Positions 2,645 through 60,336 of a DNA stretch of 64,000 nt are shown here, in pieces (within the stretch, counting starts at the first letter, position 1; every line of letters starts with the position of its first letter). Source of the DNA: Capsulimonadaceae bacterium (GTDB taxonomy: Bacteria > Armatimonadota > Armatimonadia > Armatimonadales > Capsulimonadaceae); the NCBI GenBank assembly GCA_965215505.1, contig OZ244065.1:5888001-5952000 (forward strand), read 5' to 3'. The position numbers and the translations under genes are program-made. The notes under the pieces were generated by a model, which was not told the DNA's origin, did no database searches, and saw only the letters and a program-made list of their open reading frames with translations.

Positions 2645-2737
2645 TGGTCGGAATCAGAGGTCAAAGCAACCCGCCCTGCCTGAACCGTGCCCGCAGGAGT
2701 ACCGAGTTGGAGTATTCTGTTGTGGGGCTGAACGGCT

Positions 2738-3801
2738 TCAGCCGGCCTTGATCGGCAACTCTTCCACCTGCCAGGTCTCCGTGTCTTTGCTGCCGCTAAA
2801 GCTGCCAGAACCCCAGAGATAATGTACCGGAGTTTGCATGCTGTAGAGGGACGCTGGCCCGAACGGCTTGGGGTCCAGCACCAAATCTGTGTCCCGATGG
2901 ATGACAAGCAGGTCACCGGGATCGTTCCCGAAATACAGCCCGGCGTTCCTGTCTGAAGATCCTACGCCAAACGACATGTCCACCGGCACCCACCCGATTC
3001 CATCCGCATAGAACTCGGACCGGACGTGACACTGCCCATAGTCTAGGGTGGTTAATGCCGATTTCGCCAGGCGGCCAGCGAGGGAGTGAGCGGGAACGCC
3101 GTTAGCGCGCATCGCGGAGACGAACAGGTAGGAGAGGCCGCCGCAGTCGGACTGGTCAGTCAGGCATATCTTGGAAGCACTCCGATCCTGTTTTGGGTCG
3201 TAGTGGTAGTGATAGCGCTTCCGTATCGTCTGATAGACGCGGAAACCAAAATCAAGATCACGCTCCGAGGCAGACCTATGCAAATCGGTATCGTCCAGCC
3301 AGTGCTGGAACGGGGGCGACTGGAAATCCATTGTTCGACTGCTCCGCAGGCTGAGAAGCCGATCCGAGGCAGAGAGCGGCGGGATGGGGGCTGCCGGGGG
3401 GCCAAGCAGTATGCGGCGGGAATAAAGCGTTGCCTCGTATAAAACCTAGATGGTCAGCGCCCGCTGCGCCGGTCCGTTCGGCATGGTACGCGCCCACAAG
3501 ACTGGTCGCTGAAGCTGGCTGAGTTCAGCCGTCCGTCCCTGGCCTTGAGGAAGACCATCGAGGAAAAGGCTGGCTTTCACATGGTCCTGCCCCGGCGAGG
3601 GCAGAGGAACCGGTGTGAAGACGGCCCAGCGTCGTGGCGTGTCCTTCGGGTTTCCCATGTGTCCCTGAGAGTGGCCCGGATGTGTCTCACCGGGACCGTT
3701 TCAACGTGATAGGCCGCCGGGGCGGCGGTCTGCGCGTCGCCGCGTCCGCCGCCAAACAGCGAGAGAACCAAAGCTCCGACCCGAAAGACGCGCATGGTCA
3801 T
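2738..3801 (-). pseudogene. Secreted transglutaminase-like protein disrupted by a frameshift and an in-frame TAG
   Basis: C-terminal DCGG...HVRSEFYADGIGWVPVD triad. The same frame continues upstream across TAG 3446-3448 (ALTI*VLYEATLYSRR). The signal-peptide segment (MRVFRVGALVLSLF) is in another frame, with the shift near 3660. Confidence 0.7.
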
Positions 3802-3856
3802 GCCGCAGTATAAACCATGGGCTTGCATCTGTCAAGAAGCCGATCTGCCAAAAATC

Positions 3857-4690
3857 CTACGGGTGTTCCCGGCGGATGTAGGCCAGGGCCGCCGCCCCGC
3901 CGCCCGTCAGCGCCATGACCAGAGGAACAGCGGGCGCAACGCCGTCCGGGACGGGAGAGAGGTGGATCAGAACGAACCCGAGTATCCCCATGATGCAAAG
4001 CCCGAATGCCCAGCAGGCCGAGACCTGCCAGGCAATGGCGCGTGCGTCGGCTCCTGAAGAGGGACTCGACCGGTTGTGTTGGGTCTGTACCAGGAGCAGA
4101 GCCATTTCGGCGCGCAGTGCCTCAATGGGACCCGCCGCGTCGTCCTTGGGCGTCGTCTTCGAGCGCATGTATTGTCGGTACTGTGTGGGGGAAACAGCGG
4201 CACGGTAACGGGCACGCCGGTCATTGGCTTCGCGGCGCAGCACGGCCTCGGGCGTCACGCGCAGCACGGCAAGCTCAAGCTGGTGTAGGTCCGCATAGGT
4301 CAGCGTATGGCGCTCGGATCTCGCGGTCAGATCGTAGATGGTGCTGATCGCCTGTAGGTCGAAATGGAGACACGCCGCCGGGTCCGCCCCGTCCGTCCTG
4401 AACGTGCGGTATTGGTCCAGCAGGGAGCGGAAACGCGCCTCATCGGGGCCGCGCAGGGTCTCGCGTGGGTTTGGCGGGGTTGAAGGCGCCACCCGGACGG
4501 GGGGCGGCGGTGCGGGCCGGAATCGGAGCAGGAAGGGCGAAATGCCGCCCCGCTTGGAAGAAGACGGCCGCTGTGCGCTCGGCGGCGGCGTCGGGGCGGC
4601 TAGAGGGCGGAAAACGAATAGATCAGTCATGATCGGCTTCCCGATGGGTTCCACGACTTCCGGCGTGTCTGCGACCTGCGCTTGTTCCAT
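3857..4690 (-). CDS. Hypothetical membrane protein (paralog of 1208-2644)
   Basis: Shares the block ADL..LELAVLR..PEA.L.R.A...RARY...LRAEM with 1208-2644; two C-terminal TM helices; ATG 4690 follows an AGAGGAG RBS. Confidence 0.6.
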   Translation of the reverse strand: MEQAQVADTPEVVEPIGKPIMTDLFVFRPLAAPTPPPSAQRPSSSKRGGISPFLLRFRPAPPPPVRVAPSTPPNPRETLRGPDEARFRSLLDQYRTFRTDGADPAACLHFDLQAISTIYDLTARSERHTLTYADLHQLELAVLRVTPEAVLRREANDRRARYRAAVSPTQYRQYMRSKTTPKDDAAGPIEALRAEMALLLVQTQHNRSSPSSGADARAIAWQVSACWAFGLCIMGILGFVLIHLSPVPDGVAPAVPLVMALTGGGAAALAYIRREHP

Positions 4691-4861
4691 GTTGATGACT
4701 CCTCTGTGCTCATGCTGCCGGCCGGATGCGAGAGGCACATCGGACACGCCCCCGCCAAGTGGCTCACTTTGCAGAGACACGGCCGGCCCAATAATCCTAC
4801 TGCAAAGTAGTCATACTGCAAAATTCATGCCAAAACTAATGTATTCATGCCAAAACATGAT

Positions 4862-7146: not shown

Positions 7147-8340
7147 TTACGGGCTGGCGACCCCCACCGTCACCACCTCGGCCACTCCGCCGCTGTCGCG
7201 GGCGATCTGCTGCAACAGGTGCGCCGCCTCGAAACTGTCGTCTGTGCCGTCCGGGTTCTTGCCGACCATGCCGACGGCGGAGATGCGGGCGTGGCCCGAG
7301 TTGAGCCGACGGATCTCGCGGGCGAGCGCCCCGAAGTCCGTCTCGCCCTCGGTCGGGACGCCGTCGGTCAGCAGTACGATCTCGTTGACATGGGGCCGGG
7401 TCAGGGCGCGGAGCATGGCCGCCTCCAGGTTCGTCCCGCCGTCCACCTGGAGCGTGTCGAGGTAGTCCGAAGCCTTCTGCACCATTTCGGGCGTCGCGGG
7501 TGCCATGCCGACGTCGAACGAGCGGACCTCGCTGCTGAAGGCGATGATGTTGAAAGTCTCGCCGGGCCGCAGGCCGTGAAGGGCCAGCCGCAGCTCCATG
7601 TCGGCCCGGTCAATGCGGCTGGTCATGCTGCCCGAGATGTCCAACACATAAACCACATGGCGCGGGGCGCCGTCGCCCGCCATGCCCCTGCCGAGGCCGA
7701 ACGGCTCCCCGGCGTCGCGGCCCCCCCCGGCCCCCGCCCCGCCCCCCTTGCCGGTTCCGACGCCCGCGCCTGCGCCCCGGCCAGCCGACGCGCCGCCCGC
7801 GCCGCTGCCGGTCACGGCGGCGGGCGGCGCGACCGGGGCCGTCGGCGGGGTGGGGGAGGGCGCGCTGACGGCGACTGGCGCGAGGGCGGGCATGGGGGGC
7901 GCGATGACGTTGTGGACGACGAACGGTGCGGCCCGCCGGGTCGTCGCCACGGCCGGGGCGGGCGCGGCAGGCGGCGCGGCCATCGCGGGTGCCGGGGCAC
8001 CCGCCTCCTGCCCCCCCGAGGGCGCGGCGGGCGGCGCGGGCTGGGCCGAATGGACGCGCGCGCCGGGCCGCCGGGGCGCCTTCGGGCGGGGCAGCTTGAC
8101 CGGGCGCGGCCTGGCGACGGTGGGTTTCACCGGCTGCGGCGGGGGCGGGACGACGGGGACGATGACCGGCGGGGGCGGCGCGGGGTGCCACGCCAGCCGC
8201 ACCATCCGGAGCCGGGGGAACACCGCCGCGAGCGGGGCGGACGGCGACCGCCAGACCCAGCCCATCAGGACGAACGCGGCGGCGTTCACCAGGAGCGAGG
8301 CCAGGAAGCAGAAACTCAAGCGGCGCATCTCGGACGTCAC
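7147..8340 (-). CDS. Membrane-anchored Pro-rich protein with C-terminal vWA domain (paralog of 4862-6124)
   Basis: YVLDISGSM MIDAS motif, LLTDGVPT; C-terminal domain highly similar to 4862-6124. Confidence 0.85.
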   Translation of the reverse strand: MTSEMRRLSFCFLASLLVNAAAFVLMGWVWRSPSAPLAAVFPRLRMVRLAWHPAPPPPVIVPVVPPPPQPVKPTVARPRPVKLPRPKAPRRPGARVHSAQPAPPAAPSGGQEAGAPAPAMAAPPAAPAPAVATTRRAAPFVVHNVIAPPMPALAPVAVSAPSPTPPTAPVAPPAAVTGSGAGGASAGRGAGAGVGTGKGGGAGAGGGRDAGEPFGLGRGMAGDGAPRHVVYVLDISGSMTSRIDRADMELRLALHGLRPGETFNIIAFSSEVRSFDVGMAPATPEMVQKASDYLDTLQVDGGTNLEAAMLRALTRPHVNEIVLLTDGVPTEGETDFGALAREIRRLNSGHARISAVGMVGKNPDGTDDSFEAAHLLQQIARDSGGVAEVVTVGVASP

Positions 8341-8418
8341 GAATTAAACCCTCCCTTCTTTGGACGCAAGGCCGGGGCCGGGAGTTCCCGACGCGCGGCG
8401 ACTTCCCCGCGATTTTGC

Positions 8419-8447
8419 TTGACTCCGTGGGGGCCAGCGGTTATAAT
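8419..8447 (+). promoter_or_regulatory. Sigma70-type promoter for glmU
   Basis: TTGACT-N17-TATAAT. Confidence 0.65.
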
Positions 8448-8490
8448 AGGCCGTCACCGACGCCCCGGCGCGTCCGCAGGAGTACCCGTC

Positions 8491-9900
8491 ATGCCCGATC
8501 CATCGTCGCCCCAGGCCGGCCGAGTCGCCGCGCTGATTCTGGCCGCCGGCAAGAGTACGCGCATGAAATCGCGGCGGCCCAAGGCCCTCCACGCCCTGCT
8601 CGGCCAGCCCCTCCTGCGCTGGGCTGTGGACGCCGCCCGAGGCGCGGGCGCGGCCCGGACGGTCCTCGTGGTCGGGCACCAGGCCGAGATGGTCCGCGAG
8701 GCGATGGGGCCTGACCTGGAGTACGTCCTCCAGGCCGAGCAGAAGGGCACCGGCCACGCCGTCCAGATGGCCGAGGTTCTGCTGCGGGACTGGGACGGCC
8801 CCCTGCTCGTCCTGCCGGGTGACGCCCCCCTGCTGTCCGACTCGCTCTTAGAAGCCCTGCTGGCCCACCACACTCGTTCCGGCGCGGCGGCGACCCTGCT
8901 GACGGCGGTTTTGGATGACGCCGGTTCCTATGGCCGCATCGTCCGCGACGGCGAGACGGGCCGCGTCCAAGCCATCGTCGAGGCCCGCGACGCCTCCCCC
9001 GAACAGCTCCTCATCCGCGAGATCGGCACCTCCGTCTACGCCTTCGACCCCGCCGCCCTGTTCGACGCGCTAGGCCGGATCACCCCGCAGAACGCCCAGG
9101 GCGAATACTATCTGACCGACGCCGTGGCCCTGCTCGCCGGTCAGGGCCGCGTCGTCGAGGCGCTCGTCTCCCCCGACGCCGATGTCGTGCGCGGCGTCAA
9201 CACCCGCCCGGAACTCGGCGAGCTGCGCGCGCTGATGCAGGCCCGCATCCACCAGGCCCACGGCCTTGCCGGCGTCACCATCCTGGACCCCCTGACCACC
9301 CACATTGACGCGACGGTCAAGATCGGGCCGGACACTGTTGTTCACCCCTTCACCCTCCTGTCCGGCGTCACCGACATCGGCGAGGACTGCGAGATCGGGC
9401 CGGGTGCCCGTATCAGCGACTCCCGCCTGGGCAGCGGCGTCTCCGTCCGCGACTCGCACGTCACCGCCTCCGAGGTCGGCGACGGGTGCCGCATCGGCCC
9501 CTTCGCCAACCTCCGCCCCGGAACCGTCCTGGGCCGCAATGTCAAGATCGGCGACTTCGTGGAGACGAAGAACGCCACCCTGGGCGACGGCGTCTCGGCG
9601 GGCCACCTGACGTACCTCGGCGACGCCGAGGTCGGCCCGCGCACCAACATCGGGGCCGGCACGATCACCTGCAACTACGACGGCATAGACAAGCACCGCA
9701 CCGTCATCGGCGCGGACGCCTTCGTCGGCACCCACTCCACCCTCGTCGCCCCAGTCACCCTGGGCGAAGGGGCCTGGACCGCCGCCGGCTCGGCCATCAC
9801 CGAGAACGTCCCCGCCGGTGCGCTCGGCATCGGGCGTGCCCGGCAGGTGAACAAAGAGGGCTGGGCGCGGGCCAAGAAGCGGCGCAAGAGCGGCGAGTAG
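8491..9900 (+). CDS. glmU: Bifunctional UDP-GlcNAc pyrophosphorylase / glucosamine-1-phosphate N-acetyltransferase
   Basis: LILAAGKSTRMKS, QKGTGHAV, NAQGEYYLTD, hexapeptide repeats, HLTYLGDA, GTITCNYDG; RBS AGGAG before ATG 8491. Confidence 0.97.
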   Translation: MPDPSSPQAGRVAALILAAGKSTRMKSRRPKALHALLGQPLLRWAVDAARGAGAARTVLVVGHQAEMVREAMGPDLEYVLQAEQKGTGHAVQMAEVLLRDWDGPLLVLPGDAPLLSDSLLEALLAHHTRSGAAATLLTAVLDDAGSYGRIVRDGETGRVQAIVEARDASPEQLLIREIGTSVYAFDPAALFDALGRITPQNAQGEYYLTDAVALLAGQGRVVEALVSPDADVVRGVNTRPELGELRALMQARIHQAHGLAGVTILDPLTTHIDATVKIGPDTVVHPFTLLSGVTDIGEDCEIGPGARISDSRLGSGVSVRDSHVTASEVGDGCRIGPFANLRPGTVLGRNVKIGDFVETKNATLGDGVSAGHLTYLGDAEVGPRTNIGAGTITCNYDGIDKHRTVIGADAFVGTHSTLVAPVTLGEGAWTAAGSAITENVPAGALGIGRARQVNKEGWARAKKRRKSGE

Positions 9901-9906
9901 AGCTTC

Positions 9907-10254
9907 ATGTCCATCCACAAAGACGATAAGTTTATCGAGTTTATCGAATGCGTTTGTTTGCGGCCGACGATGTTCGTGAGGTCCGGTAGCTTTGAGGAGG
10001 TCGCCACCTTTCTGGATGGCTATACCCATGGCGTGACCCAATTCGCTCCTGCTGATGTCAGGGCCGACTGCCTCTATGCATTCGGGTACTGGCTCTCCGA
10101 CAAGTGCGAGGGCTTGAAGGGAGTCCCGCGCAGTCTAGCATGGTTTGGGAAAATACGCCACCTGTTCCCAGACGATCAGGAAGCATTGCAGGCAATGGCG
10201 CGGCTGTATCGGGAGTTCTTGGACGATCCGGGGCGGGTGAAGAGAACCACATGA
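9907..10254 (+). CDS. Hypothetical protein
   Basis: 115-aa lower-GC ORF right after glmU; RP.MF...FL.GY motif; stop overlaps the next start. Confidence 0.6.
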   Translation: MSIHKDDKFIEFIECVCLRPTMFVRSGSFEEVATFLDGYTHGVTQFAPADVRADCLYAFGYWLSDKCEGLKGVPRSLAWFGKIRHLFPDDQEALQAMARLYREFLDDPGRVKRTT

Positions 10255-10496
10255 TCACCTCTAAAGCCCGTCAGGAAGTGACTGATTTCCTCGCGGCGAG
10301 CCGAAACCCAGACGAGATCATAGAGTTTCGCCTTTCCGAGGAAGCGCGGGCGCGTGCCTATGACCTCCTCGCACGGGAAAAAGGCAACGGCCTGAGCGCG
10401 GAAGAGGCGACAGAGCTTGACGATTACATGCGGCTGGAACACCTAATGCGCCTCACCAAAGCAAGCGCTAGGGCCGAGAACCAGCGCAAGCCATGA
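10251..10496 (+). CDS. Small hypothetical protein, putative antitoxin-like
   Basis: ATGA overlaps at both ends; sequence EIIEFRLSEE...LSAEEATELDDYMRLEHLMRL. Confidence 0.6.
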   Translation: MITSKARQEVTDFLAASRNPDEIIEFRLSEEARARAYDLLAREKGNGLSAEEATELDDYMRLEHLMRLTKASARAENQRKP

Positions 10497-11263
10497 GCAA
10501 CCTGTACGCCGACCCGGCAGCCGCCAGCCGCTACAACGCCGCCCGGCATCTGCCCGAGGAGACGAAGGCGTTCTGGATGGACAGCCTCAAGGCGGTTCTG
10601 CCTGAAGTCCCTGTCGGGCGGTGTCTGGACTTGGGCTGTGGGACGGGCCGGTTCACGGCGGTGTTGGCACAGACTTTCGCCTGCCCGGTCGTCGGCGTGG
10701 AGCCTTCGGTAGCGATGCTTGCCGTCGCGCGGGCGGAGGCCATCCCCGAGGTGGAGTGGAAGCAGGGGAGCGCCGAGGACATCCCTTTGGAGAGCGGGTC
10801 GGTCCGGCTGGTCTTCATGTCACAGGTGTTCCATCACCTGAACAAGCCGCAGGAGGCTTTGCGGGAGATCCACCGCGTTCTGACGCCCGGAGGCAGCCTG
10901 ATCATCCGTAACGGGACGGCGGAGAACAATGAGGAAACGGAGTGGCTCCAGTGCTTCCCCAAGGCCCTGGCCTTCGACGCCCGGCGCATCCCAACGCGGG
11001 ATGCCCTGGAAGAGACGGTCTGCCGCCGACCGTTCGAGCTCGTCACCCGGCAGACCTTCCGGCAGTTGTTCGCGGCTTCGTACCGGGACTATTACGCAAA
11101 GGTCGGCCAGCGCGGTCTATCTTCGCTCATTGCCATCAGCGACGAGGCTTTTGCGCGCGGTATGGAGCGCTTCAAGGTGTGGGCGGATGAGCAGCCGCCC
11201 GACGAACCGGTCTATGAGCCGGTGGACGTGTTCGTTTTCCGCAGGCACGGGAGCGCGGCCTGA
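10493..11263 (+). CDS. Class I SAM-dependent methyltransferase
   Basis: LDLGCGTG motif I, GVEPS..ML, VFHHL, LTPGG. Confidence 0.9.
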   Translation: MSNLYADPAAASRYNAARHLPEETKAFWMDSLKAVLPEVPVGRCLDLGCGTGRFTAVLAQTFACPVVGVEPSVAMLAVARAEAIPEVEWKQGSAEDIPLESGSVRLVFMSQVFHHLNKPQEALREIHRVLTPGGSLIIRNGTAENNEETEWLQCFPKALAFDARRIPTRDALEETVCRRPFELVTRQTFRQLFAASYRDYYAKVGQRGLSSLIAISDEAFARGMERFKVWADEQPPDEPVYEPVDVFVFRRHGSAA

Positions 11264-11290
11264 CGTCATGGCCTGTAGAGACGAGACAGG

Positions 11291-11373
11291 AGGGGCGGGG
11301 ACCAAGCCCCGCCCCTACGCGGCCCCGCCATGCCGGTTGCCGTGACCGTAGGGGTAGGGCTTGTCCCTACCCT
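11291..11373. repeat. Inverted pair of GTAG-type REP-like palindromes
   Basis: AGGGGCGGGGACCAAGCCCCGCCCCTAC (11291-11318) and GTAGGGGTAGGGCTTGTCCCTACCCT (11348-11373). Confidence 0.65.
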
Positions 11374-11515
11374 CCGTTCCATGATACATCTTCTGTCCCC
11401 TGGACAGGTCTTGCGTCAGCGAGTGAATTCAGTCACTCGTTCCTAACTCACCACCAAAGCCGCCGATTGAGCGGCGATCGTCAGTATCAGACGCTACTCG
11501 GGGAGATCACACCAC

Positions 11516-12484
11516 ATGGGAGCGGACGAAGACACCCTGCGCCTCTTCAGCGGCAACGCCAACCCGGCCCTGGCCGAGAAGATCGCCTACCACCTGGGCC
11601 GGTCGCTCGGCAAGATACACTGCACGCGCTTCGCCGACGGCGAGATCCGCGTCAAGATCGAGGAGAGCGTGCGCGGCATGGACGTGTTCATCGTCCAGCC
11701 GACCTGCGCGCCGGTCAATGACACCCTGATGGAGCTGCTGATCATGGTGGACGCCTTCCGGCGGGCGTCCGCCAAGCGCATCACCCTGGTCATGCCCTAC
11801 TACGGGTACTCGCGGCAGGACAAGAAGATCAAGCCGCGCGAACCCGTCACCGCCCGGCTGGTCGCCGACATGATCACGGCGGCGGGCGCGCACCGCGTCC
11901 TGGCCGTGGACCTGCACGCGGGCCAGATCCAGGGCTTCTTCCAGCTCCCCCTGGACCATCTCTACGCCGGACCGCTGCTGGCTGCTTACCTCGCGGAGAA
12001 GGGCCTGAGCGACGGCGACACGGTCGTCGTCTCGCCGGACGTCGGGGGCGTGGGCCGGGCGCGCGGCATGGCCGAGATGCTGCACGCGCCCATCGCCATC
12101 ATCGCCAAGCGCCGCCCCGAGCCGAACAAGGTGGAGATCATGGAGATCATCGGCGACGTGCGCGGCAAGACGTGCGTCATGGTGGACGACATGATCGACA
12201 CGGGCGGCAGCACCGTCCTGGGGGCCTGCGCCCTGATGGAGCGCGGGGCGCGGCGCGTCTTCGCCTGCTGCACCCACGCGATCCTGTCCGACGGGGCCGT
12301 AGGCCGGATCGAGGACTCGCCCATCGCCGAGCTGGTCATCACCGACACCATCCCGTTCGACGACGGAAAGGCGGCCCGCAGCAGCAAGACGACCGTGATC
12401 TCGGTTGCCCCATTGCTGGCGAGCGCCATCTCCCGAATCCACCACGACGACAGCGTGAGCGAATTGTTCGACGCCTACTATTAG
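11516..12484 (+). CDS. prs: Ribose-phosphate pyrophosphokinase
   Basis: FADGE, PYYGYSRQD, DLHAGQIQGFF, VSPDVGG, VDDMIDTGG. Confidence 0.97.
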   Translation: MGADEDTLRLFSGNANPALAEKIAYHLGRSLGKIHCTRFADGEIRVKIEESVRGMDVFIVQPTCAPVNDTLMELLIMVDAFRRASAKRITLVMPYYGYSRQDKKIKPREPVTARLVADMITAAGAHRVLAVDLHAGQIQGFFQLPLDHLYAGPLLAAYLAEKGLSDGDTVVVSPDVGGVGRARGMAEMLHAPIAIIAKRRPEPNKVEIMEIIGDVRGKTCVMVDDMIDTGGSTVLGACALMERGARRVFACCTHAILSDGAVGRIEDSPIAELVITDTIPFDDGKAARSSKTTVISVAPLLASAISRIHHDDSVSELFDAYY

Positions 12485-52585: not shown

Positions 52586-55500
52586 CTATTGCAGCGGGTC
52601 GAACAGCGGCACGATGACGGTGCGCGGCTTGCCGATGGTGGACTGGACGAGCAGTGTGTGACTCTGCTTTCCGGCCGAAGGCAACAGCAGCTTTCGCGCG
52701 GCGGTCAGGCCCAAGCCCGCCGTTTTGTGGCCGTCAATCTCCAGCACTTCGTCGAACGTGTTGAGGGCGGCGCGGACAACGGGGTCGCGCGCCTGCACCT
52801 CGGCGAGTATGACGTGACCGTGGCCCTGCGGGTCCTTCGTTTCCATCAACGTCAGGCCCGTCGTCTTGGTGACAAAGGGGGCGCGGGTGGCCGAGGTGGG
52901 TGCGAAGAAGACGCGGGAGTGCGGGTAGTCGAAGGTGACGACGAACCGGGACAGCAGGGACACGCCGAGCGACCCGGCGTTGATGAGGGACGCGCCGCCC
53001 TTGGGGTCGAGGGAAAAATCGGTGGGCACGCCGCGCAGGGTGACGCCCGCGACTCGGAGGGACCCGGTGCGCGTGACGCGGGAGCGCGAGACGCCGCCGA
53101 TGCCGCCGCCGGTCGTCAGGAGGCCGTGCGGGTACTTCTTGTCCAAGCCATATTGGGCGACGAAGGGGCTGTAGAGCCGCAGGGCGGCTTCATCGCCGGT
53201 GTCAATGAGGAACCTCTGGGGCGGCAGGGCGTCGAACTGGGCGACGACGGAGGGAACGTCATTGTCCAGTTCGAGAGGAAGGGCGACGCCGTCCGAGGCA
53301 GTCGGGTGGAAGGCGTCGGGCCGCAGGAAGGTCAGCTTCTTGCGCGCGAAGTCCAGGCGGACGACGAAATGGGAGAGCAGGTCGTAGCCGACGAAGCCGG
53401 AGATCGGGCGGGTGAAGTAGGAGTTCAGGGTGTCCGGCAGGTCAATCGCGATCGCCGTCACATCGGTGAGCTGGACCGCGCCCGGCACCTCCACGCGGCT
53501 GACGAGGACCGGGTGCAGGTCGGTCGAGCCGCCGTAGCCGCGCGCCTCCAGGAAGCCGCTGCTTTTCAGCCCCAGACGAGTCGCCGTCTGCTGGGAGAGG
53601 GCGATGCCGCTGGCCCCGCTGTCCAGGAAGACGCGGCTGGGCTGCCCGTTGAGCCGCAGGTCGAGTCCGATCTCGCCGTCGTCGGTGTCGAAGGGGACCG
53701 TCGCGGATGTCTGGCCGGGCCTAATGAAGCGGAACTTGTCGCCGCCGGTCGGCGGCGCGAACAGGTCCGGCGGCAGCGTGATGTTGTTCTGGAGCCGGGT
53801 GACTTTCCCGACGATGTCGTAGCGTGCGGTGCCGTTCGTCGTCGTCATGCTGAAGGGAAAGCGCGCCCCGTCCACGGCCCGGTAGTCGCCGTAGCCGGTC
53901 GTCACCAGGATGTTGTCGTCGAGGTGCTGCTCCCGGACGATCAGGAACGTGTGCGGGTCGAAGAAGAGCGTGCTGGGCTTGCCGCCGTCGGGCAGGGCGT
54001 CCACGACCCAGTCGCCCGTTTCGGGGTCCGGCTGGGGGCGCAGGGTCAGCCGGCCGGGGATGCGGCCGGGCAGGACATAGGAATTGGTGTCGAAGAAGAG
54101 CTGGACGCGCAGGTCCTTCAGCTCTTCGCCCGCCAGCGGGCGGACGTTGCCGTTGGTGTCGCGCTGCCAGGCGCTCTTGCCGTCGTAGCCCTGGGTGATA
54201 TCCAGAATCCCGAGCTTGTCCTCCTCGTACTCCCGGTCGGGTGCGGCGTAGATGGTCGTGATCGTCCCCTGGATGCCGCCCGTCGAGACGCTGGAAACGA
54301 CCTTGGTGTTCTTGAGGGCCATGATGACGTCCGCGCCGCCTAGGGCGGTCAGGTGCTTCTGCATCAGCATCGCCAGCGTCATCGGCGGGTCTGTCGGCAC
54401 GGGCGGGGTCATCACGTCCGCCACCAGGGAGAAGTGTGCGCCCCCCGCCCGCGTTCGCAGGGCGCTCGGCAAGGCGGGCGGCACGAGCGGCGCGGGGGCG
54501 GGGGGCGGGGGCGGGCCGGCCGTGAGCTGCATCCGGCTGTGCGCGTAGTCGAACGTCACCTGGAAGCGGTTCAGTACCTGGTTGCCGATCCCGCCGGCGT
54601 TCGTGGAGACGCGGGCGATCCCCGGCCCGGTCAGTGTCGCCACGTCCAGGCCGCTGAACTTCAGGGTCCCGACGCCCATCGTGTGCCCCGGCGTGATCGT
54701 CTCTTGGACCACCCCGCCCACCCCACTGCCGGAGAGAATCCGGGCGCGCGGGTCGTTCGGGCGCGGCAGCAGGCCGTTCGCCTGGGCGTAGTCTCCGTAC
54801 AGGTGGACGCCGCCCGCGTCGCCCGTATCAACCAGGAACCGGGCGGGCGGGTGGCCGTCCACGGAGGCGAGGATCGTCGGCACCCGCCCCTCCAGCTTGA
54901 GCGGGACCGTGACGCCCGCCCCGTCGGGGACGCGCGGCGCGGCGGGGTCGGTCAGGGTGACGGTCTTCTGGGCATAGTCGATCCGCGTGACGAAGCGGGA
55001 AAGCAGCTCGTAGCCGATGCCGCCGTCCACGCGGCCCTGCGCGCTGAGGCGCTTGCCGACATTCGGGTCCTTGATGACGTGCAGGAGCTGGCCGGACAGG
55101 CGGACCGCGCCGCCGAGTTCGAGCGTCGCCTGCGTCGCGATCCCGGTGTCCGAGGAGCCGCCGTACCCGAGGGTGGGCAGGTTGCCCTGCGTGTTCAGCC
55201 CCGCCTCCTGGGCGGCCTGGGCGGTGATGAACGCCCCGCCCGCCCCGCTGTCCAGCAGGAAGCGGAGGGGGTGGCCATTGACCGAGACGAAGACGATGAC
55301 CTCGTTCTCGTCGGTCACGAAAGGGAACGCGGCCTGGGTGGTGGCACCGGGCGTCAGGAACTGCCAGTCTCGCGCCGGCCTCGGCAGCACGAACAGCGAA
55401 GCGACGAGCGTCGCCCGCGTCGCCTGGGTCAGCGCGGCATCAATGGTCAGCGGCAGCCCCGCCGGCTGGATCTGGAGGTGGCTGGGCGTCTGCAACCCGA

Positions 55501-56110
55501 ACAGCGGCTTGTAGGTCAGGATGCTGATCGTCGTGCTGATCCCGCCCTTCCGCACGACCGACTTGCGGATGAGGTACGTCTTCGGGTCCAAATAGATCGT
55601 CTGCTTGGTCCCGCCCTTCGGCAAGACGTCCAGCACATAACACCCCGTCTCGACGTCGCGCCCCGGCCGGAGCGTGATAGTGCCACTGCCGCCTTTGGAG
55701 GTGTGCTTGAGTGGGTCCACGCTTTCGAGCGAGAAGCCGTTGTCGGCCTTGTTCTCGGCCAGCTCCTCGCCGCCCAGGATGCGGACGTTGCCGTTGCCGT
55801 CCTGCTCCCAGGTCGTCTTGCCGTCGCTGCCGGACGTGTTGGAGATCGGCCCCAGCCGGACCTCCGTGCGGCTGCGGTGCTTTGACGCCTCGTAGGTCGT
55901 CATCGTGCCGCTCAGGCCGCCCGCGCTCATCGTGTAGACAGTTTCCTGCATCCCCGTGTCCGGGAAAGCGGTCGGCGAGCCGGTGGCCCGCTGGTGCCGC
56001 GCCAGCACCTCGTTGAGTGTCAGCGCGGCGGGCGGCAGGGCGGCGGCGGGGAGGAGCAGGCAGAGGAGGGACGCGCACAGGAGGGTGCGCTGGAAAAGGG
56101 TGTAGTTCAC
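52586..56110 (-). CDS. Secreted, internally duplicated retropepsin-like aspartyl protease with PDZ-like tail
   Basis: Four catalytic-type motifs (LLDSGA, LVDTGD, FLDSGA, LIDTGD) in two repeated modules; signal peptide. Confidence 0.85.
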   Translation of the reverse strand: MNYTLFQRTLLCASLLCLLLPAAALPPAALTLNEVLARHQRATGSPTAFPDTGMQETVYTMSAGGLSGTMTTYEASKHRSRTEVRLGPISNTSGSDGKTTWEQDGNGNVRILGGEELAENKADNGFSLESVDPLKHTSKGGSGTITLRPGRDVETGCYVLDVLPKGGTKQTIYLDPKTYLIRKSVVRKGGISTTISILTYKPLFGLQTPSHLQIQPAGLPLTIDAALTQATRATLVASLFVLPRPARDWQFLTPGATTQAAFPFVTDENEVIVFVSVNGHPLRFLLDSGAGGAFITAQAAQEAGLNTQGNLPTLGYGGSSDTGIATQATLELGGAVRLSGQLLHVIKDPNVGKRLSAQGRVDGGIGYELLSRFVTRIDYAQKTVTLTDPAAPRVPDGAGVTVPLKLEGRVPTILASVDGHPPARFLVDTGDAGGVHLYGDYAQANGLLPRPNDPRARILSGSGVGGVVQETITPGHTMGVGTLKFSGLDVATLTGPGIARVSTNAGGIGNQVLNRFQVTFDYAHSRMQLTAGPPPPPAPAPLVPPALPSALRTRAGGAHFSLVADVMTPPVPTDPPMTLAMLMQKHLTALGGADVIMALKNTKVVSSVSTGGIQGTITTIYAAPDREYEEDKLGILDITQGYDGKSAWQRDTNGNVRPLAGEELKDLRVQLFFDTNSYVLPGRIPGRLTLRPQPDPETGDWVVDALPDGGKPSTLFFDPHTFLIVREQHLDDNILVTTGYGDYRAVDGARFPFSMTTTNGTARYDIVGKVTRLQNNITLPPDLFAPPTGGDKFRFIRPGQTSATVPFDTDDGEIGLDLRLNGQPSRVFLDSGASGIALSQQTATRLGLKSSGFLEARGYGGSTDLHPVLVSRVEVPGAVQLTDVTAIAIDLPDTLNSYFTRPISGFVGYDLLSHFVVRLDFARKKLTFLRPDAFHPTASDGVALPLELDNDVPSVVAQFDALPPQRFLIDTGDEAALRLYSPFVAQYGLDKKYPHGLLTTGGGIGGVSRSRVTRTGSLRVAGVTLRGVPTDFSLDPKGGASLINAGSLGVSLLSRFVVTFDYPHSRVFFAPTSATRAPFVTKTTGLTLMETKDPQGHGHVILAEVQARDPVVRAALNTFDEVLEIDGHKTAGLGLTAARKLLLPSAGKQSHTLLVQSTIGKPRTVIVPLFDPLQ

Positions 56111-56152: not shown

Positions 56153-56182
56153 TTGACAATCCCCGAAACCGTGTGCTATTAT
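56153..56182 (+). promoter_or_regulatory. Sigma70 promoter of the RNA-repair operon
   Basis: TTGACA (56153)-N18-TATTAT (56177), with extended -10 TG. Confidence 0.7.
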
Positions 56183-56195
56183 CTCGCCCGGACCC

Positions 56196-56417
56196 ATGAC
56201 TTCACGAAACCATAACCTGCTCGCGGCGACCCCCGGCATCCAGACACCCTCGTTCTGGTCGCCCCTCGCCGCGTCACGCCTGGCCGACGGTTTCGGTACG
56301 GGCGCGGCGGGCTGTTTCGCGCCCTCCGCCGCCTATCAGCCCGGCCAAGCCATAACCCCAGATTATCCCGCGCCGCCGGTTGCGCCTGCCTCATGTCACC
56401 AGGAGAGACATCCTTAG
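56196..56417 (+). CDS. Putative leader peptide (73 aa)
   Basis: ATG a few nt after the predicted TSS; rich in codons unusual for this GC-rich DNA (ATA, TAT x2, AGA, CGA, TCA); ends 35 nt before a terminator. Confidence 0.4.
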   Translation: MTSRNHNLLAATPGIQTPSFWSPLAASRLADGFGTGAAGCFAPSAAYQPGQAITPDYPAPPVAPASCHQERHP

Positions 56418-56452
56418 TTTTTCCTCCCCCAACGACATTCAGCAGAGCAATC

Positions 56453-56486
56453 GGCCCCCGGCGCAAAGCCAGGGGCCTTTTTCTTT
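56453..56486 (+). terminator. Intrinsic terminator in the operon leader (putative attenuator)
   Basis: GGCCCC-C-GGC-GCAAA-GCC-A-GGGGCC followed by TTTTTCTTT. Confidence 0.7.
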
Positions 56487-56531
56487 GCCTCTTCGCGTCA
56501 CGGCGAAAGCCACAAAAGCAAGACAGAACAT

Positions 56532-56616
56532 CGGTTGGAGGCAGATACGGTTTGCTGCTCTGGTCTGTAAAACCAGTTCCCGTTGTGGAGTGTGGGTTCG
56601 AATCCCACCCAACCGA
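56532..56616 (+). tRNA. Atypical tRNA-Tyr(GUA) or tRNA-like RNA
   Basis: Acceptor CGGTTGG/CCAACCG, D-stem GCAG/CTGC, anticodon arm CTGGT-CTGTAAA-ACCAG, long variable arm, T-arm GTGGG-TTCGAAT-CCCAC, A73; no encoded CCA. Confidence 0.85.
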
Positions 56617-56649
56617 CTTGACCGACCATTCCGAAGGGAGGCGACGCGA

Positions 56650-57756
56650 ATGAGCGAACTGGAAGTACAGCGATTTTTACGCGGCGGCGGGACGCTCGCA
56701 GATCTGACGGCCACCTACGGCATCAAGGCGAAAGCCGATGTCGATCTCGGCGTCGTCATGCTGAACTACAACCAGATCGCCTCGCCGATGGCCGAAATGA
56801 TCTGCCAGGAGTGCCGCGCCCTGCTGCTCGAAATGGGCACCTGGGACGTGGTTTCGCGGAGCTTCTTCAAGTTCTTCAATCTGGGGGAGCCGAACGCCCA
56901 CGAGGTTGATTGGAAGACGGCGCGGGTGCAGGAAAAGCTGGACGGCAGCCTGGTCTGCCTCTACTTCCACCGAGGGCAGTGGCGGGTCGCGACGAAGGGA
57001 ACGCCGGACGCCTCCGGGCCGGTGAACAGCCACCCGATCACCTTCGCGGACCTGGTCAAGCAGACGCTGGCCGAGATGGGAAGCTCGTTCGAGGGCCTGA
57101 CGGCACATCTCGACCCGGCGGTCTTCTACTCCTTCGAGCTGACCGCGCCTGAGAACCGCATCATCGTCCCCTATGAAGACCGCCGCCTGACCTGGCTGGC
57201 GGCGTGGGATGCGCGGACCTTGGAAGAGCTGGACATTGAGGCGCTGCCCGACCTGCCCACCCCGCGCGTCCGGGAGTACCCGCTGCGGACTCTGGACGAG
57301 GTGATGACGGCGGTGGGGGCCATCGCGCCGTTCGCCGCCGAGGGCTTCATCGTGCGGGACGCGGCCCACCGGCGCGTCAAGATCAAGAGCGCGTCCTACC
57401 TGATGGTGGACCGCATCCTGAGTGCCCTCAGCACGCCCCGCCGCAAGGTGGAAGCGGTGCTGTCCGCGCAGTTCGACGACATGGTGCCGCAGCTCCCGCC
57501 CCAAGTGCGGGACGAGATGCTGTCGCTCCAGGCACATCTGGTGGCGTTCCGCCGGGAGGTGGCGGAGACGTTCGAGGCGCTTGCCGGGATCGAGGACCGG
57601 CGCGGGTTCGCGGCGGAGGCCTTGCGCCACCCGTTCTCGCCGATGCTGTTCTGGCTGCGGGACGGCAACGACATGGATGAGTGCTTCAGGCGGCTCCACC
57701 CGGACCGCCTGGTGGAATGGCTGGCGGTCGCGCCCGCCGGGGCGGAGGAGGAATAG
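56650..57756 (+). CDS. T4 Rnl1-like ATP-dependent RNA ligase
   Basis: ECRALLL, SFFKFFNLGE, motif I EKLDGSL, FELT, EGFIVRD, RVKIKS; RBS GGAGG before ATG 56650. Confidence 0.85.
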   Translation: MSELEVQRFLRGGGTLADLTATYGIKAKADVDLGVVMLNYNQIASPMAEMICQECRALLLEMGTWDVVSRSFFKFFNLGEPNAHEVDWKTARVQEKLDGSLVCLYFHRGQWRVATKGTPDASGPVNSHPITFADLVKQTLAEMGSSFEGLTAHLDPAVFYSFELTAPENRIIVPYEDRRLTWLAAWDARTLEELDIEALPDLPTPRVREYPLRTLDEVMTAVGAIAPFAAEGFIVRDAAHRRVKIKSASYLMVDRILSALSTPRRKVEAVLSAQFDDMVPQLPPQVRDEMLSLQAHLVAFRREVAETFEALAGIEDRRGFAAEALRHPFSPMLFWLRDGNDMDECFRRLHPDRLVEWLAVAPAGAEEE

Positions 57757-57759
57757 GAA

Positions 57760-58770
57760 ATGTCTACGCTTATCGTGGAGGTCTGCAAAATCGAAAAAGT
57801 GCTGGCGCATGACAACGCGGACGCGCTGGATCTGGCTCAAATCAAGGGCTGGCAGTGCGTCATCCCGAAGGGGAAGTACGCGCCGGGCGACCTGGTGACC
57901 TACATCCCCATTGATGCGGTCATCCCGGCCGAGCATTCGGACCGCTGGGGCATCACCAAGTACCTGTCCAACGGGCGGGTCCGGTGCGCGCGCCTGCGCG
58001 GCGAGCCGAGCTTCGGCGTCATCGTGGACCGCGACAATAAAGAATGGCCGGAGGGTAGGGACATCCAGGACTTCTACGGCATCACCAAGTACGTCCCGCC
58101 GGTCAAGATCAGCGCGGGCGACGCCGCCCCGTCCCACCCGCTGTTCGTCGAGTACACGGACGTCGAGAACCTGCGGAACTTCCCCGCCGTCTTCACGGAA
58201 GGCGAGGAGGTGTCGGTGTCGGAGAAGATTCATGGGACATCATGCCGGTTGGGGCTGGTCGAGGGCGAGTGGATGGCCGGCTCCATGTCGGTGCGCCGAC
58301 GCCGGCCCGAGGAGCTGTCGGGGAGCATCTACTGGCAGCCGATGGCCCTGCCGGATGTCGAGGCCCTGCTGAGTCACCTGGGCGCCTCGCACCGGCAGGT
58401 GATCCTGTACGGCGAGGTCTTCGGCAGCAAGGTCCAGAGCCTGGCCTATGGTCAGACCGGGGCGACCGGCTTCCGCGCCTTCGACCTACTGGCCGACGGC
58501 AAGTACCTGGACGCAGACGACTTCGCGGCCTTGTGCGCGCGGTTCGAGGTACTCGCCGTCCCCGTCCTGTACCGGGGGCCGTACAGCCTGGAGACAGTCA
58601 AGGCGCTGTCCGAGGGCGCGACGACCTTGGGCGCGGACCACATCCGCGAGGGCGTCGTCGTCCGCCCGGTGCGGGAGCGCAATGACCCGAAGGTGGGCCG
58701 GGTCTGCCTGAAATACATCGGCGACCCGTACCTGTTCGCCAAGAACGTCACGGACAGCCACGACGTTTGA
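57760..58770 (+). CDS. DRB0094/Rnl5-family ATP-dependent RNA ligase
   Basis: N-terminal OB module (H.NAD.L.LA.I.GWQCV...GDLV.YIP.D), motif I EKIHGT, YGEVFG, FRAFDL, REGVVV, LKYI. Confidence 0.88.
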   Translation: MSTLIVEVCKIEKVLAHDNADALDLAQIKGWQCVIPKGKYAPGDLVTYIPIDAVIPAEHSDRWGITKYLSNGRVRCARLRGEPSFGVIVDRDNKEWPEGRDIQDFYGITKYVPPVKISAGDAAPSHPLFVEYTDVENLRNFPAVFTEGEEVSVSEKIHGTSCRLGLVEGEWMAGSMSVRRRRPEELSGSIYWQPMALPDVEALLSHLGASHRQVILYGEVFGSKVQSLAYGQTGATGFRAFDLLADGKYLDADDFAALCARFEVLAVPVLYRGPYSLETVKALSEGATTLGADHIREGVVVRPVRERNDPKVGRVCLKYIGDPYLFAKNVTDSHDV

Positions 58771-58791
58771 CATTTCGAGAAAGGGAAAAAC

Positions 58792-60227
58792 ATGGAAAAG
58801 GAAAACATCAAGATCTTCGGAGACCACGAGGAGTCCACGTTGGCCCAGATCACGCGCTCGGCCTCCCCCGAGTCGGTCCGAGGCGCCGTCCTGTGCGCGG
58901 ACGGCCACAAGGGCTACGCCGTGCCCATCGGGGGCGTGATCGCCTACGAGGACAAGATCAGCCCGTCCGGAATAGGGTTCGATATCGCCTGCGGCAACAA
59001 AGCCGTGCGCCTGGACGTTCCCGCCTCGCAGGTGCGGGGCAAGATCAAGAAGATCATGGATGACGTCTGGAGCCACCTGGAATTTGGCATCGGTCGGACG
59101 AACGACACGCATGTGGACCACGAGCTGTTCGACGACGAGGCATGGAAGCTGTCGCCGATGAAGTCGCTAAAGCAGATGGCCCGCAACCAGCTTGGGACAA
59201 TCGGCAGCGGTGTCAGCCGCCTCGCATTGTAAGATGCGATGAGAAACCCGTCCAAATCGGGAAACGCCTGTGAGGGTAATTCCGAGGGAAGTGCGCTGGC
59301 GCGAGCCAACACCCCGTAGAGAGCAGAGGGACTTGGGCAGCCTGGGAACAGGCTGAAGGTGTGCTCCGAACTGCATGGAAAACGAACATGCAGAGCCAGG
59401 CGGAAACGACCTGGATGGTTTTGCTTTTTCGCGGCAGGAACCGCATAAAAAGCAAAACAGATAACAGACTGAACCACTATGTGGACATCTTCGCCGATGA
59501 GCAGGACCGGACCTGGATCGGCGCGCACTTCGGATCGCGCGGGCTGGGGCACAAGACGGCGACCTTCTTCCTGGAGGCGGGCGGGGCGAAGGACGGCATG
59601 GACGTGGACCCTCTGGTCCTCGACGTGCGCTCGTCGCTCGGCGGCGACTACCTCGCCTGCATGGCCCTGGCCGGGCGCTACGCCTACGCGGGGCGCGACT
59701 GGGTCTGCGCCGAGGTGGCGCGGCTGCTGGGGGCGAACATCCTGGAGGAAGTACACAACCACCACAACTTCGCCTGGAAGGAGACGCACGGCGGGCGGGA
59801 CCTGTGGGTGGTCCGCAAGGGGGCGACGCCGGCCTTCCCCGGCCAGAAGGGATTCGTTGGCGGCTCGATGGGGGACCAGTCGGTCATCCTGGAGGGCCTG
59901 GCTTCGGACGAGGCGACGGACGCGCTGCATTCGACGGTGCATGGTGCGGGCCGCGTGATGAGCCGGACGCAGGCGCGCGGCAAGGTCAACCGCAAGACGG
60001 GCCAGGTGATCTCGCCGGGCGTGGTCTCGCGCGCGATGATGCAGGAGTGGCTGCGCGAGAAGAACGTCGAGCTGCGCGGCGCGGGCACGGACGAGTCGCC
60101 GCATTGTTACAAACGGCTTCCGGACGTGCTGGCGCACCACGCCGGGTCCATCCGCGTCCTGCACACGCTGACGCCGCTCGGCGTGGCGATGGCAGGCGAG
60201 GACGTGGCAGACCCGTTTCGGGACTAG
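58792..60227 (+). CDS. rtcB: RtcB RNA ligase, spliced: exon 1 58792-59211, exon 2 59472-60227 (391 aa)
   Basis: Exon 1 has DGHKGY.VPIGG, DIACG, QLGTIGSG; exon 2 has NHY, HFGSRG, HNHHN, RKGATPA, GSMG, HGAGR, DESP..YK. Joining them restores GTIGSGNHY in frame. Confidence 0.93.
59212..59471 (+). ncRNA. Group I self-splicing intron (260 nt, no internal ORF) in rtcB
   Basis: 5' exon ends in U forming a U-G wobble in P1 (GCGGU-GUCA-GCCGC); terminal G 59471; P3 CCCGUCC/GGAC(UU)GGG; P4 UCGGGA/UUCCGA; P7 G(A)GAGCA 59319-25 / UGCUCC 59362-67; P8 CAGCCUG-GGAA-CAGGCUG; GNRA loops on P2, P5, P6; three 3' hairpins. Confidence 0.9.
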
Positions 60228-60231
60228 GCTC

Positions 60232-60261
60232 ACACCCGGCCCTTCCGGGCCGGGTGTTTTT
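60232..60261 (+). terminator. Intrinsic terminator after rtcB
   Basis: ACACCCGGCCC-TTCC-GGGCCGGGTGT followed by TTTT. Confidence 0.75.
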
Positions 60262-60263
60262 CT

Positions 60264-60336
60264 GCTTCCGTCGCTTAACTGGACAAAGCGCGCCCCTTAT
60301 AAGAGCGTGATCCGGGTTCGAGTCCCGGCGGGAGTA
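60264..60336 (+). tRNA. tRNA-Ile(UAU), rare anticodon
   Basis: Acceptor GCTTCCG/CGGGAGT, D-stem GCTT/AAGC with GG in loop, anticodon arm CGCCC-CTTATAA-GAGCG (one C-A mismatch), T-arm CCGGG-TTCGAGT-CCCGG, A73; no encoded CCA. Confidence 0.85.

Follow-up and report, generated by a model that had tools for sequence, protein, structure and literature searches.

The DNA analysed here, hereafter the window, is a stretch of 64,000 nucleotides (nt) from the 6.18-Mb genome of a soil-type Capsulimonadaceae bacterium of the phylum Armatimonadota (G000; all other G and L labels denote genomes and loci of relatives), and positions are given within it unless another genome or locus is named. Between 56153 and 60336 it carries a series of co-oriented plus-strand features: a promoter, a leader open reading frame (ORF), an intrinsic terminator, a tRNA-Tyr, genes for an Rnl1-like and an Rnl5-like RNA ligase, an rtcB gene split by an intervening sequence, a hairpin and a tRNA-Ile (Table 1). 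The first-pass annotation had listed this anatomy, and each of its elements was found again in place. A promoter scan returned 2 promoter-like sites in 4.7 kb (0.6 expected) and no further plus-strand site between 56183 and 60336. The -35 box and the 36-37 nt spacing to the leader ATG are kept at 11 of 12 related loci, the 12th being cut by a contig end. Past the leader the genes follow closely on one another as an operon, with gaps of 3 to 21 nt and ribosome-binding sites; the Rnl5-like ORF starts 3 bases past the Rnl1-like ORF. GC content falls to 57-62% at the leader and at the intervening sequence.

Table 1. Features of the tRNA and RNA-ligase module, with their positions in the window
Feature	Position	Strand	Basis
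Sigma-70-type promoter: TTGACA, 18-nt spacer, TG-extended TATTAT	56153-56182	+	11/12 consensus matches
Leader ORF, 73 codons plus TAG; almost no 5′ untranslated region, no Shine-Dalgarno sequence	56196-56417	+	ORF list, alignment
Box 1, proposed 5′ strand of the antiterminator, inside the leader ORF over Pro-Pro-Val/Ile-Ala codons	56370-56383	+	Alignment; 9-nt core at 56375-56383
Stop-codon hairpin, with the leader stop (56415-56417) in its apical loop	56401-56425	+	Single-sequence folds
Box 2, proposed 3′ strand of the antiterminator; overlaps the first 3 nt of the terminator stem	56447-56455	+	Alignment, folds
Leader intrinsic terminator: 10-bp GC-rich stem (56453-56477), 5-nt loop, T-run	56453-56486	+	Covariation
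tRNA-Tyr(GUA), extra; long variable arm, C1:G72, A73, no encoded CCA	56532-56616	+	ARAGORN; Rfam 48.9 bits
Rnl1-like ATP-dependent RNA ligase, 368 aa; GGGAGG ribosome-binding site upstream	56650-57756	+	PF09511
Rnl5-like RNA ligase, 336 aa; N-terminal OB plus nucleotidyltransferase domain	57760-58770	+	PF21189, PF09414
rtcB exon 1, 140 codons, ending ...GSG	58792-59211	+	PF01139 profile positions 8-94
Intervening sequence, 260 nt, no ORF, phase 0; probable group I intron	59212-59471	+	Allele comparison, fold
rtcB exon 2, 251 codons plus stop, starting NH...; HGAGR motif	59472-60227	+	PF01139 profile positions 173-424
Hairpin, 11-bp GC-rich stem plus T-run, abutting the 5′ end of tRNA-Ile	60232-60263	+	Terminator scan
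tRNA-Ile(UAU); G1.U72, C30.A40 mismatch	60264-60336	+	ARAGORN; Rfam 53.5 bits

Twelve loci from 11 genomes share the promoter, the start of the leader ORF, the box inside it (box 1) and the terminator, placed ahead of tRNAs, Rnl5 or rtcB. At 11 of the 12 loci an ORF runs from an invariant ATG for 49-94 codons and stops 24-31 nt before box 2, at the base of the terminator; at the 12th it is frame-shifted. The distance from the ATG to box 1 is a multiple of 3 at 11 of the loci, and because the frame has been kept across 9 distinct lengths, the comparison argues that the leader ORF is translated. The peptide has no match to any Pfam family. Its N-terminal 25-30 residues and a C-terminal motif are conserved, and the middle is hypervariable in both length and sequence.

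A second layer of constraint appears to act on the RNA. The core of box 1 is near-invariant at the 12 loci, third codon positions included, and over 9 nt it is complementary to box 2: 98.1% of 108 alignment cells can pair, as against 11-44% when the two boxes are slid past one another. Synonymous invariance of these codons, together with their complementarity to the base of the terminator, points to selection on the RNA itself. When the whole G000 leader is folded, its minimum-energy structure includes the helix between the boxes, extended to 14 pairs. The segment between the boxes places the stop codon in the apical loop of a hairpin at 11 of the 12 loci, though the stem sequences differ (single-sequence folds). 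The terminator stem is supported by covariation, with 94.2% of 120 cells paired, 4 of its 10 pairs changed on both sides, and a covariation score reached by none of 500 shuffles. Its identity in relatives is 83-98%, against about 75% for their coding DNA; a simple terminator scan misses it. The suggestion that the leader gates the operon by attenuation thus gains comparative backing from the conserved frame, the terminator covariation and the box complementarity.

The attenuator pattern was found in 15 of the 17 genomes sampled from the genus. In two of them (G016 and G013) Rnl5 and rtcB lie apart, and each has its own copy; G000 has no second copy. A scan of 401 genomes of the phylum gave matches outside the genus that look like chance, since a reversed-pattern control also matches about 20 genomes, and we claim the element for the genus only. 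Rfam searches of 4.3 kb and of 296 nt, at the gathering threshold and at E<=10, returned no T-box, Y RNA or other leader family. The leader contains no run of a single codon and lacks the regulatory codons by which amino-acid-type attenuators are recognised. The element would work like an attenuator, though unlike those of the amino-acid type.

Both tRNAs of the module are supernumerary, in agreement with the earlier description of them as spares, because the host has its own tRNA-Tyr and four tRNAs with CAU anticodons. ARAGORN lists 63 tRNA genes in G000 (a few apparently spurious); among them the ordinary tRNA-Tyr has a G1:C72 pair, and a UAU anticodon occurs only in the module. Their description as non-canonical also holds, given the C1:G72 pair and missing CCA of the tRNA-Tyr and the G1.U72 and C30.A40 pairs of the tRNA-Ile. 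Across 8 related copies the tRNA-Tyr keeps a 25-pair cloverleaf in which 8 pairs show compensatory changes (position 1:72 is CG in 4 copies and GC in 4), implying that the tRNA is under selection. Seven UAU tRNAs were listed; G1.U72 is found in all 6 copies of ordinary length, the 7th being a 94-nt ARAGORN call, and position 30:40 is C.A or U.G. We considered a Y-RNA/Ro system and rejected it, as there is no Ro gene in the module and both RNAs have full anticodon arms; a 19-bit match of the Deinococcus Y RNA over the tRNA-Ile reflects only its likeness to a tRNA.

Outside the window, four sites of the G000 genome hold further odd supernumerary tRNAs (2219562-2221409, 1531681-1531922, 4660380-4660547 and 900247-900325). 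The first is a six-gene cluster (Arg, Asn, Met-type CAU, Gly, Phe and Lys), and other odd tRNAs of this genome include a Gly with a 74-nt ‘Leu(UAG)’ that has no long arm, a Cys and Glu pair, and an unusual Val(UAC). These scattered genes look like pieces of the same kind of tRNA array that is described below for the relatives.

Hidden Markov model searches bear out all three ligase assignments. The Rnl1-like ORF matches PF09511 with 57.1 bits (cut-off 28.3; 3e-15), and its translation contains a KLDG lysine motif (KxDG). Its best relative of solved structure is T4 Rnl1 (2C5U, E 3.4e-7, residues 52-279); the alignment ends at residue 279 of 368, and the final 90 residues match nothing. In T4 Rnl1 it is the C-terminal domain that confers tRNA specificity. 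The Rnl5-like ORF combines a PF21189 OB domain (residues 6-88) with PF09414 (residues 149-320, 5e-26) and a KIHG motif I lysine, and its closest solved structure is the RNA ligase of Naegleria gruberi, NgrRnl (5COT, E 1.8e-17, residues 19-301 against 21-317 of 340). This match, like the comparison with the Deinococcus radiodurans enzyme, shares the order of OB and then nucleotidyltransferase domain and aligns over nearly the full length; in Naegleria and Deinococcus terms, what sets the present gene apart is its position among tRNA genes, here and in 14 of 19 related loci. We know of no established physiological substrate for the Rnl5 enzymes. Both the Rnl1 and the Rnl5 gene occur once in G000.

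The two pieces of RtcB score 63.8 and 133.1 bits against PF01139, carry the DIAC, GSG|NH and HGAGR motifs and match the Pyrococcus and human RtcB structures. Joined, they give a protein of 391 aa that aligns end to end with the uninterrupted RtcB of relatives at 63-95% identity. A second, uninterrupted rtcB stands alone elsewhere in G000. RtcA and RtcR are absent from the module ORFs and from within 1.5 kb of the second rtcB, the parts of the genome searched for them. RtcB joins 2′,3′-cyclic-phosphate or 3′-phosphate ends to 5′-OH ends, and Rnl1 and Rnl5 join 3′-OH to 5′-phosphate ends.

The intervening sequence in rtcB is probably a mobile group I intron. In G011, G012, G013 and G017 the gene is uninterrupted, and G000 and G022 have 260 and 254 extra bases between the GSG and NH codons of the metal-binding motif (the end of exon 1 aligns to residues 187-201 of Pyrococcus RtcB). 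Removing 59212-59471 restores the GSG|NH frame exactly. Just before the insert the exon has T in both insert-bearing alleles, as against C, A, G and G in the four intronless ones; the insert ends in ...ACUG. A P1 helix of 5 bp, including a U.G pair, can be drawn between exon ...GCGGU and insert nt 5-9 (GCCGC). A P7 helix drawn by hand (G(A)GAGCA / UGCUCC, with a bulged A) shows 2 compensatory pairs relative to the 23S rRNA group I introns of two genomes of the same genus, G006 (L026 1-154 and 1390-1539) and G015 (L025 1521-1672), to which the 3′ part of the insert is 75-80% identical; those introns themselves score 37-39 bits against RF00028, below the curated 50. P3 to P6 are assigned by eye only, and the loops of P2, P5, P6a and P8 are GNRA. 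Between the G000 and G022 inserts one P2 pair changes on both sides, three GNRA loops are kept, and a long 3′ hairpin is kept through G.U pairs. The fold of the insert beats all 200 shuffles (z-score -4.2). The RF00028 group I model gives no match to the insert at E<=10, so the identification as a group I intron stands on the absence from close relatives, the T and G at its borders and the drawable P1 and P7, and goes without the family model. No other copy was found in G000, nor any match in a phage collection searched in distant mode, and short matches in G029 and G070 proved to be something other than introns. As a separate observation, the 23S introns of G006 and G015 adjoin long ORFs, and one lies just upstream of the sarcin-ricin loop region.

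Four public sequencing runs were examined, and all their contigs come from relatives (88-95% likeness), with intron-bearing and intronless alleles in the same samples. The joint of 59210 to 59472 seen in X19 belongs to an intronless allele of another strain, because it has C where the intron-bearing allele has T; the joint in X3 is likewise an intronless allele. A run recorded as RNA (X18) covers the stretch in part, with one contig that contains the intron and another that ends at 59211. This retained insert, the silent RF00028, an in-frame stop 7 codons into the insert and the second intact rtcB would all suit a disabling insertion that has left the module rtcB a two-piece pseudogene. We regard that as highly improbable: the insertion falls exactly between codons, the exons on either side are intact and 84-95% identical to uninterrupted homologues, and the T before the insert, the final G, the drawable P1, the P7 with its compensatory pairs, the conserved GNRA loops with the P2 change and the stable fold all speak against it. 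The first-pass annotation had proposed that splicing also gates the operon, which finds no support. Across the order, the full insert was present in 2 of 71 genomes, and close relatives have intronless alleles, so it looks like a selfish insertion; nothing suggests a control role, and the intron appears to be a passenger rather than a regulator of the operon. Group I introns occur in bacterial and phage protein-coding genes, including T4 td and nrdB. The rtcB insert resembles these in being small and ORF-less (theirs may be endonuclease-associated), in its site at a conserved catalytic motif and in its presence or absence among close strains, and differs in its host gene, its site between GSG and NH and the lack of an RF00028 score.

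Comparison with relatives shows how variable the surroundings of the attenuator are. A 4.2-kb query matches parts of 36 of 41 genomes, including all 23 other genomes of the genus. The earlier idea of a designed unit, in which two tRNAs bracket three ligases, finds no support here: among the relatives examined, the conserved core is the attenuator with tRNAs, Rnl5 and RtcB, in variable combinations. The combination of all three ligases is limited to G011, G015 and G022, with a damaged version in G012. Elsewhere the conserved partners are Rnl5 and RtcB inside arrays of extra tRNAs (5 tRNAs in G018, 10 in G014, 15 in G005, 8 in G023 and 22 in a Capsulimonas metagenome-assembled genome (MAG)); several 73-nt ‘Leu’ tRNAs in them have no long arm. 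With 2 tRNAs against 5-22, G000 has the remnant of an array rather than a long array (L-array). The stand-alone Rnl1 genes of G013, G016, G017 and G021 have neither an attenuator nor a tRNA beside them. Judging from these gene orders, Rnl1 is a lineage-specific addition, and G000 would be a reduced array that gained it.

The genome collection yielded 19 Rnl5 loci. At 14 of them tRNA genes adjoin Rnl5 or lie in the module; the remaining 5, two of them short contigs, have none. Planctomycetota loci include one of Tepidisphaerales with 27 tRNAs and one of Phycisphaerales with 4. In the former (L054, a MAG, 8010-12156) an Rnl5 homologue of 57% identity sits amid 27 co-oriented tRNAs that cover most amino acids, with no RtcB within 10 kb. 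L052 (G018) adds a further enzyme of tRNA end repair to this type of island: a Thg1-like gene at 2626-3462, flanked by the array tRNAs and rtcB, matches PF04446 (3.7e-26) and includes the Thg1 C-terminal domain. The G015 module contains a weak 2-oxoglutarate-oxygenase ORF and a DUF559 ORF. Several ligase genes are interrupted. In L042 (G012, 2376-3152, minus strand) a free-standing LAGLIDADG/helix-turn-helix gene replaces most of Rnl1, of which 74 codons are left. The rtcB of L039 (G006, 2244-4751) has an intein of about 440 aa of the LAGLIDADG type (Intein_splicing and LAGLIDADG_3 matches) before the DIAC Cys, in one ORF of 835 aa, and G013, G017 and G038 show a gap of about 1.3 kb at that position. 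In two Chthonomonadaceae MAGs, Rnl5 has a LAGLIDADG intein at the lysine motif (L058 10001-12124; PF03161, 3e-19) or is split by an insert of about 1 kb with a 299-aa transposase-like ORF (L060 8802-10921). If the module is read as proposed below, the rtcB intron, the inteins and the homing-endonuclease genes also show that selfish elements accumulate in these ligase genes, much as they do in phage tRNA regions.

Such variability could mean that the island is cargo, either selfish or acquired by recent transfer, and is what remains of a phage-type tRNA region; it would bring the host no regulated benefit, and leader and terminator would merely silence a costly foreign tRNA set. The great differences in content among species and the decay of genes fit this, as do the many selfish elements (the group I intron, the rtcB and Rnl5 inteins, the free-standing LAGLIDADG and DUF559 genes), the GC dip at leader and intron, the Rnl5-in-array loci of other phyla and the homologues of Rnl5, about 30% identical, in tRNA-rich jumbo phages; published tRNA arrays are also described as horizontally spread and mostly silent (PMC8421152). 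Yet the phage proteins are no closer than about 30% identity. The same flanking genes enclose the island in G000, G011, G012 and G022 (only the upstream flank is shared in G006), and no integrase or phage gene is present among the module ORFs; with conserved flanks and no such genes, a prophage or integrative element was rejected. The attenuator, found in most genomes of the genus and duplicated before separated Rnl5 and rtcB genes, and the tRNA-Tyr fold, kept through 8 compensatory pairs, are hard to explain as cargo, and a mere silencer needs no translated, frame-conserved ORF wired to a terminator. We therefore consider the cargo explanation rather unlikely.

The explanation that we prefer, and hold with about even confidence, is that the locus is a cut-down member of a variable genus island, a tRNA emergency kit of extra tRNAs and RNA end-joining enzymes, read from a single promoter behind a leader-peptide attenuator. 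Under normal translation of the leader, a ribosome on box 1, or one halted at the stop codon in the apex of the hairpin, would keep the two boxes from pairing, so that the terminator forms and the operon is off. When the ribosome lags, fails or is absent, as after tRNA cleavage or shortage or with ribosome-targeting drugs, box 1 would pair with box 2 and take the 3 bp next to the T-run. Read-through would then yield tRNA-Tyr, Rnl1, Rnl5 and rtcB and, past the second hairpin, tRNA-Ile(UAU), and any block of initiation or early elongation is predicted to induce the operon. The extra tRNAs would top up or replace damaged ones, RtcB would reseal breaks with 2′,3′-cyclic-phosphate and 5′-OH ends, and Rnl1 and Rnl5 would reseal 3′-OH/5′-phosphate nicks. 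Self-splicing of the intron would be required for RtcB production and would lie outside the control. The module is plausibly a translation-stress set for tRNA supply and repair under attenuation. More tentatively, the attenuator family may define a translation-failure regulon of the genus, gating tRNA arrays, Rnl5, RtcB and sometimes Rnl1 or the Thg1-like gene independently, so that a slowdown of ribosomes (caused, for example, by tRNA-cleaving toxins or anti-phage nucleases) would directly trigger tRNA replacement and resealing; this would also give Rnl5 a role in tRNA repair.

A number of observations weigh against this explanation. There is no covariation for the antiterminator helix, because neither box arm varies. 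The boxes overlap the terminator by 3 nt only (the pairs next to the T-run), and in the minimum-energy folds of 5 of the 12 loci, as in the consensus fold, a shorter box helix stands beside an intact terminator; an extended pairing that takes the whole 5′ arm of the terminator is possible, by eye, at only 9 of the 12. A pause hairpin inside the leader ORF, also considered, is unsupported, with 68% of cells paired and 95 of 500 shuffles doing as well. At the other end of the operon, the tRNA-Ile is immediately preceded by a strong hairpin and T-run, which may be a partial terminator or a stem that protects the 3′ end; G012 and G022 have another strong hairpin at the equivalent of 60232-60263, without a T-run, and the T-run is seen in G000 alone. 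The intron is still present in the contig from the run recorded as RNA. No end-healing enzyme (kinase or phosphatase) was found among the module ORFs, and the two ligase chemistries would therefore serve different lesions. The module decays in relatives, with a fragmentary Rnl5 in G011 and an Rnl1 cut by the homing-endonuclease gene in G012, which fits a dispensable function. Finally, no sensor codons could be identified, since codon rarity in the leader is ordinary: 19-21% of randomly drawn gene windows match it in rarity, which is not significant.

The coexistence of box helix and whole terminator, and the lack of antiterminator covariation, could also mean that the leader ORF encodes an independent small protein, with the hairpin as an ordinary terminator for that gene and the box helix in a stabilising or processing role; the tRNAs and ligases would then be expressed from another start or by constitutive leak-through. 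Conservation of the N-terminal residues and the C-terminal motif as peptide would suit such a protein. The hypervariable middle (total length 49-94 aa) and the absence of a family match do not, and the codons under the strongest conservation do not vary even at synonymous positions and can pair with the base of the terminator, which indicates a constraint on the RNA. The element also stands always ahead of tRNA, Rnl5 or rtcB genes, and the promoter scan offers no other plus-strand start between 56183 and 60336. Together these make an independent small protein distinctly improbable.

Another form of control to be weighed is a codon-specific sensor of demand for the array tRNAs (Asn, His, Leu, Ile or Tyr, for example) rather than of general translation capacity. 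The leaders have a conserved Asn-His-Asn-Leu-(Ile) near the N-terminus and a Tyr just before box 1; by eye, the conserved Ile is ATA in G006, G014, G018 and G023 and the conserved Leu is TTG. The leader has ATA in G000 and G012, both with tRNA-Ile(UAU), and ATT in G011, which has lost that tRNA, a correlation of three genomes. The missing codon runs and the ordinary rarity of the G000 leader codons argue the other way, the arrays hold tRNAs for most amino acids, so that any leader would ‘match’, and stalling at the Tyr codon would leave box 1 under the ribosome, which favours termination. We find such a sensor very doubtful.

Classical attenuators such as trpL, hisL and pheL (also described in PMC4007540) combine a translated leader with an intrinsic terminator and a rival helix, and the position of the ribosome decides which of the two forms; the same logic is proposed here. 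The leader described here differs in having no run of regulatory codons, in its length (49-94 codons), in its nearly leaderless mRNA and in controlling tRNAs and RNA ligases. With the 5′ strand of the antiterminator inside the ORF, an untranslated leader should read through, whereas an untranslated trp leader terminates. A parallel in logic is the PA5471.1 leader peptide of Pseudomonas aeruginosa, for which PMC12057347 describes a proposed attenuation of armZ. There too terminators lie behind a short translated leader, and impaired or stalled ribosomes are the proposed cause of read-through. The sequences are unrelated, and the Pseudomonas system controls an operon for an efflux-pump anti-repressor, with no tRNA genes in the account consulted. 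In Deinococcus, leaderless mRNAs with leader peptides before aminoacyl-tRNA synthetase or amino-acid genes and a radiation-induced RtcB are both reported, with no link drawn between them in that source (PMC4007540).

The nearest known system in content is the trn operon of Anabaena PCC 7120. According to PMC8421152, long tRNA arrays are horizontally spread, the Anabaena array is induced by ribosome-targeting antibiotics, rtcB occurs in array neighbourhoods and is co-induced, homing-endonuclease genes lie beside arrays, and RtcB and the array tRNAs are proposed jointly to maintain the tRNA pool; PMC10272220 adds a repressor of the operon, TrcR. Supernumerary tRNAs in one orientation, nearby rtcB and homing-endonuclease genes, a patchy distribution and the proposal of impaired translation are common to both systems in these accounts. 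Here, in a different phylum and known from sequence, there are 2 tRNAs (5-22 in relatives), the ligases lie inside the array, Rnl5 (and Rnl1) stand beside RtcB, and an apparent leader-peptide attenuator takes the place of the repressor at promoter repeats that these sources describe.

The first-pass annotation knew of no description of this combination. The general idea, tRNA arrays adjoining rtcB and co-regulated with it under translational stress, is already published for cyanobacteria, namely for Anabaena (PMC8421152). Three points are new: a conserved leader proposed to act as a switch, an Rnl5 gene that regularly lies among tRNA genes, and a probable intron in rtcB. In the open-access texts of PMC and bioRxiv, our searches brought up no leader-peptide attenuator ahead of tRNA or ligase genes and no Rnl5 within tRNA arrays, nor, among the titles listed, an intron in rtcB. 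If our explanation is correct, the genus has a second and mechanistically different solution from the Anabaena repressor, with spare tRNAs and ligases wired to the progress of the ribosome. The genomic context of Rnl5, among tRNA genes in two phyla, would make its cellular substrate testable with tRNAs, and a cultivable lineage would be at hand for testing induction by ribosome inhibitors or anticodon nucleases.

The resealing of breaks in tRNA anticodon loops has precedents. Phage T4 Rnl1 and Pnk repair tRNA-Lys cleaved by PrrC, and bacterial rtcBA is controlled by RtcR. The module shares with them ligases of the Rnl1 and RtcB families and the logic of repair; it differs in having no kinase/phosphatase, RtcA, RtcR or sigma-54 control, and in combining three ligases and tRNAs in one operon.

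Upstream of the module, on the minus strand (52586-56110), the neighbouring gene encodes a secreted-looking protein of 1174 aa with an internal duplication. Each half has a pair of retropepsin-like aspartyl protease domains (PF13650, 3.5e-30, two stretches), and the gene is conserved beside the island in G011, G012 and G006.

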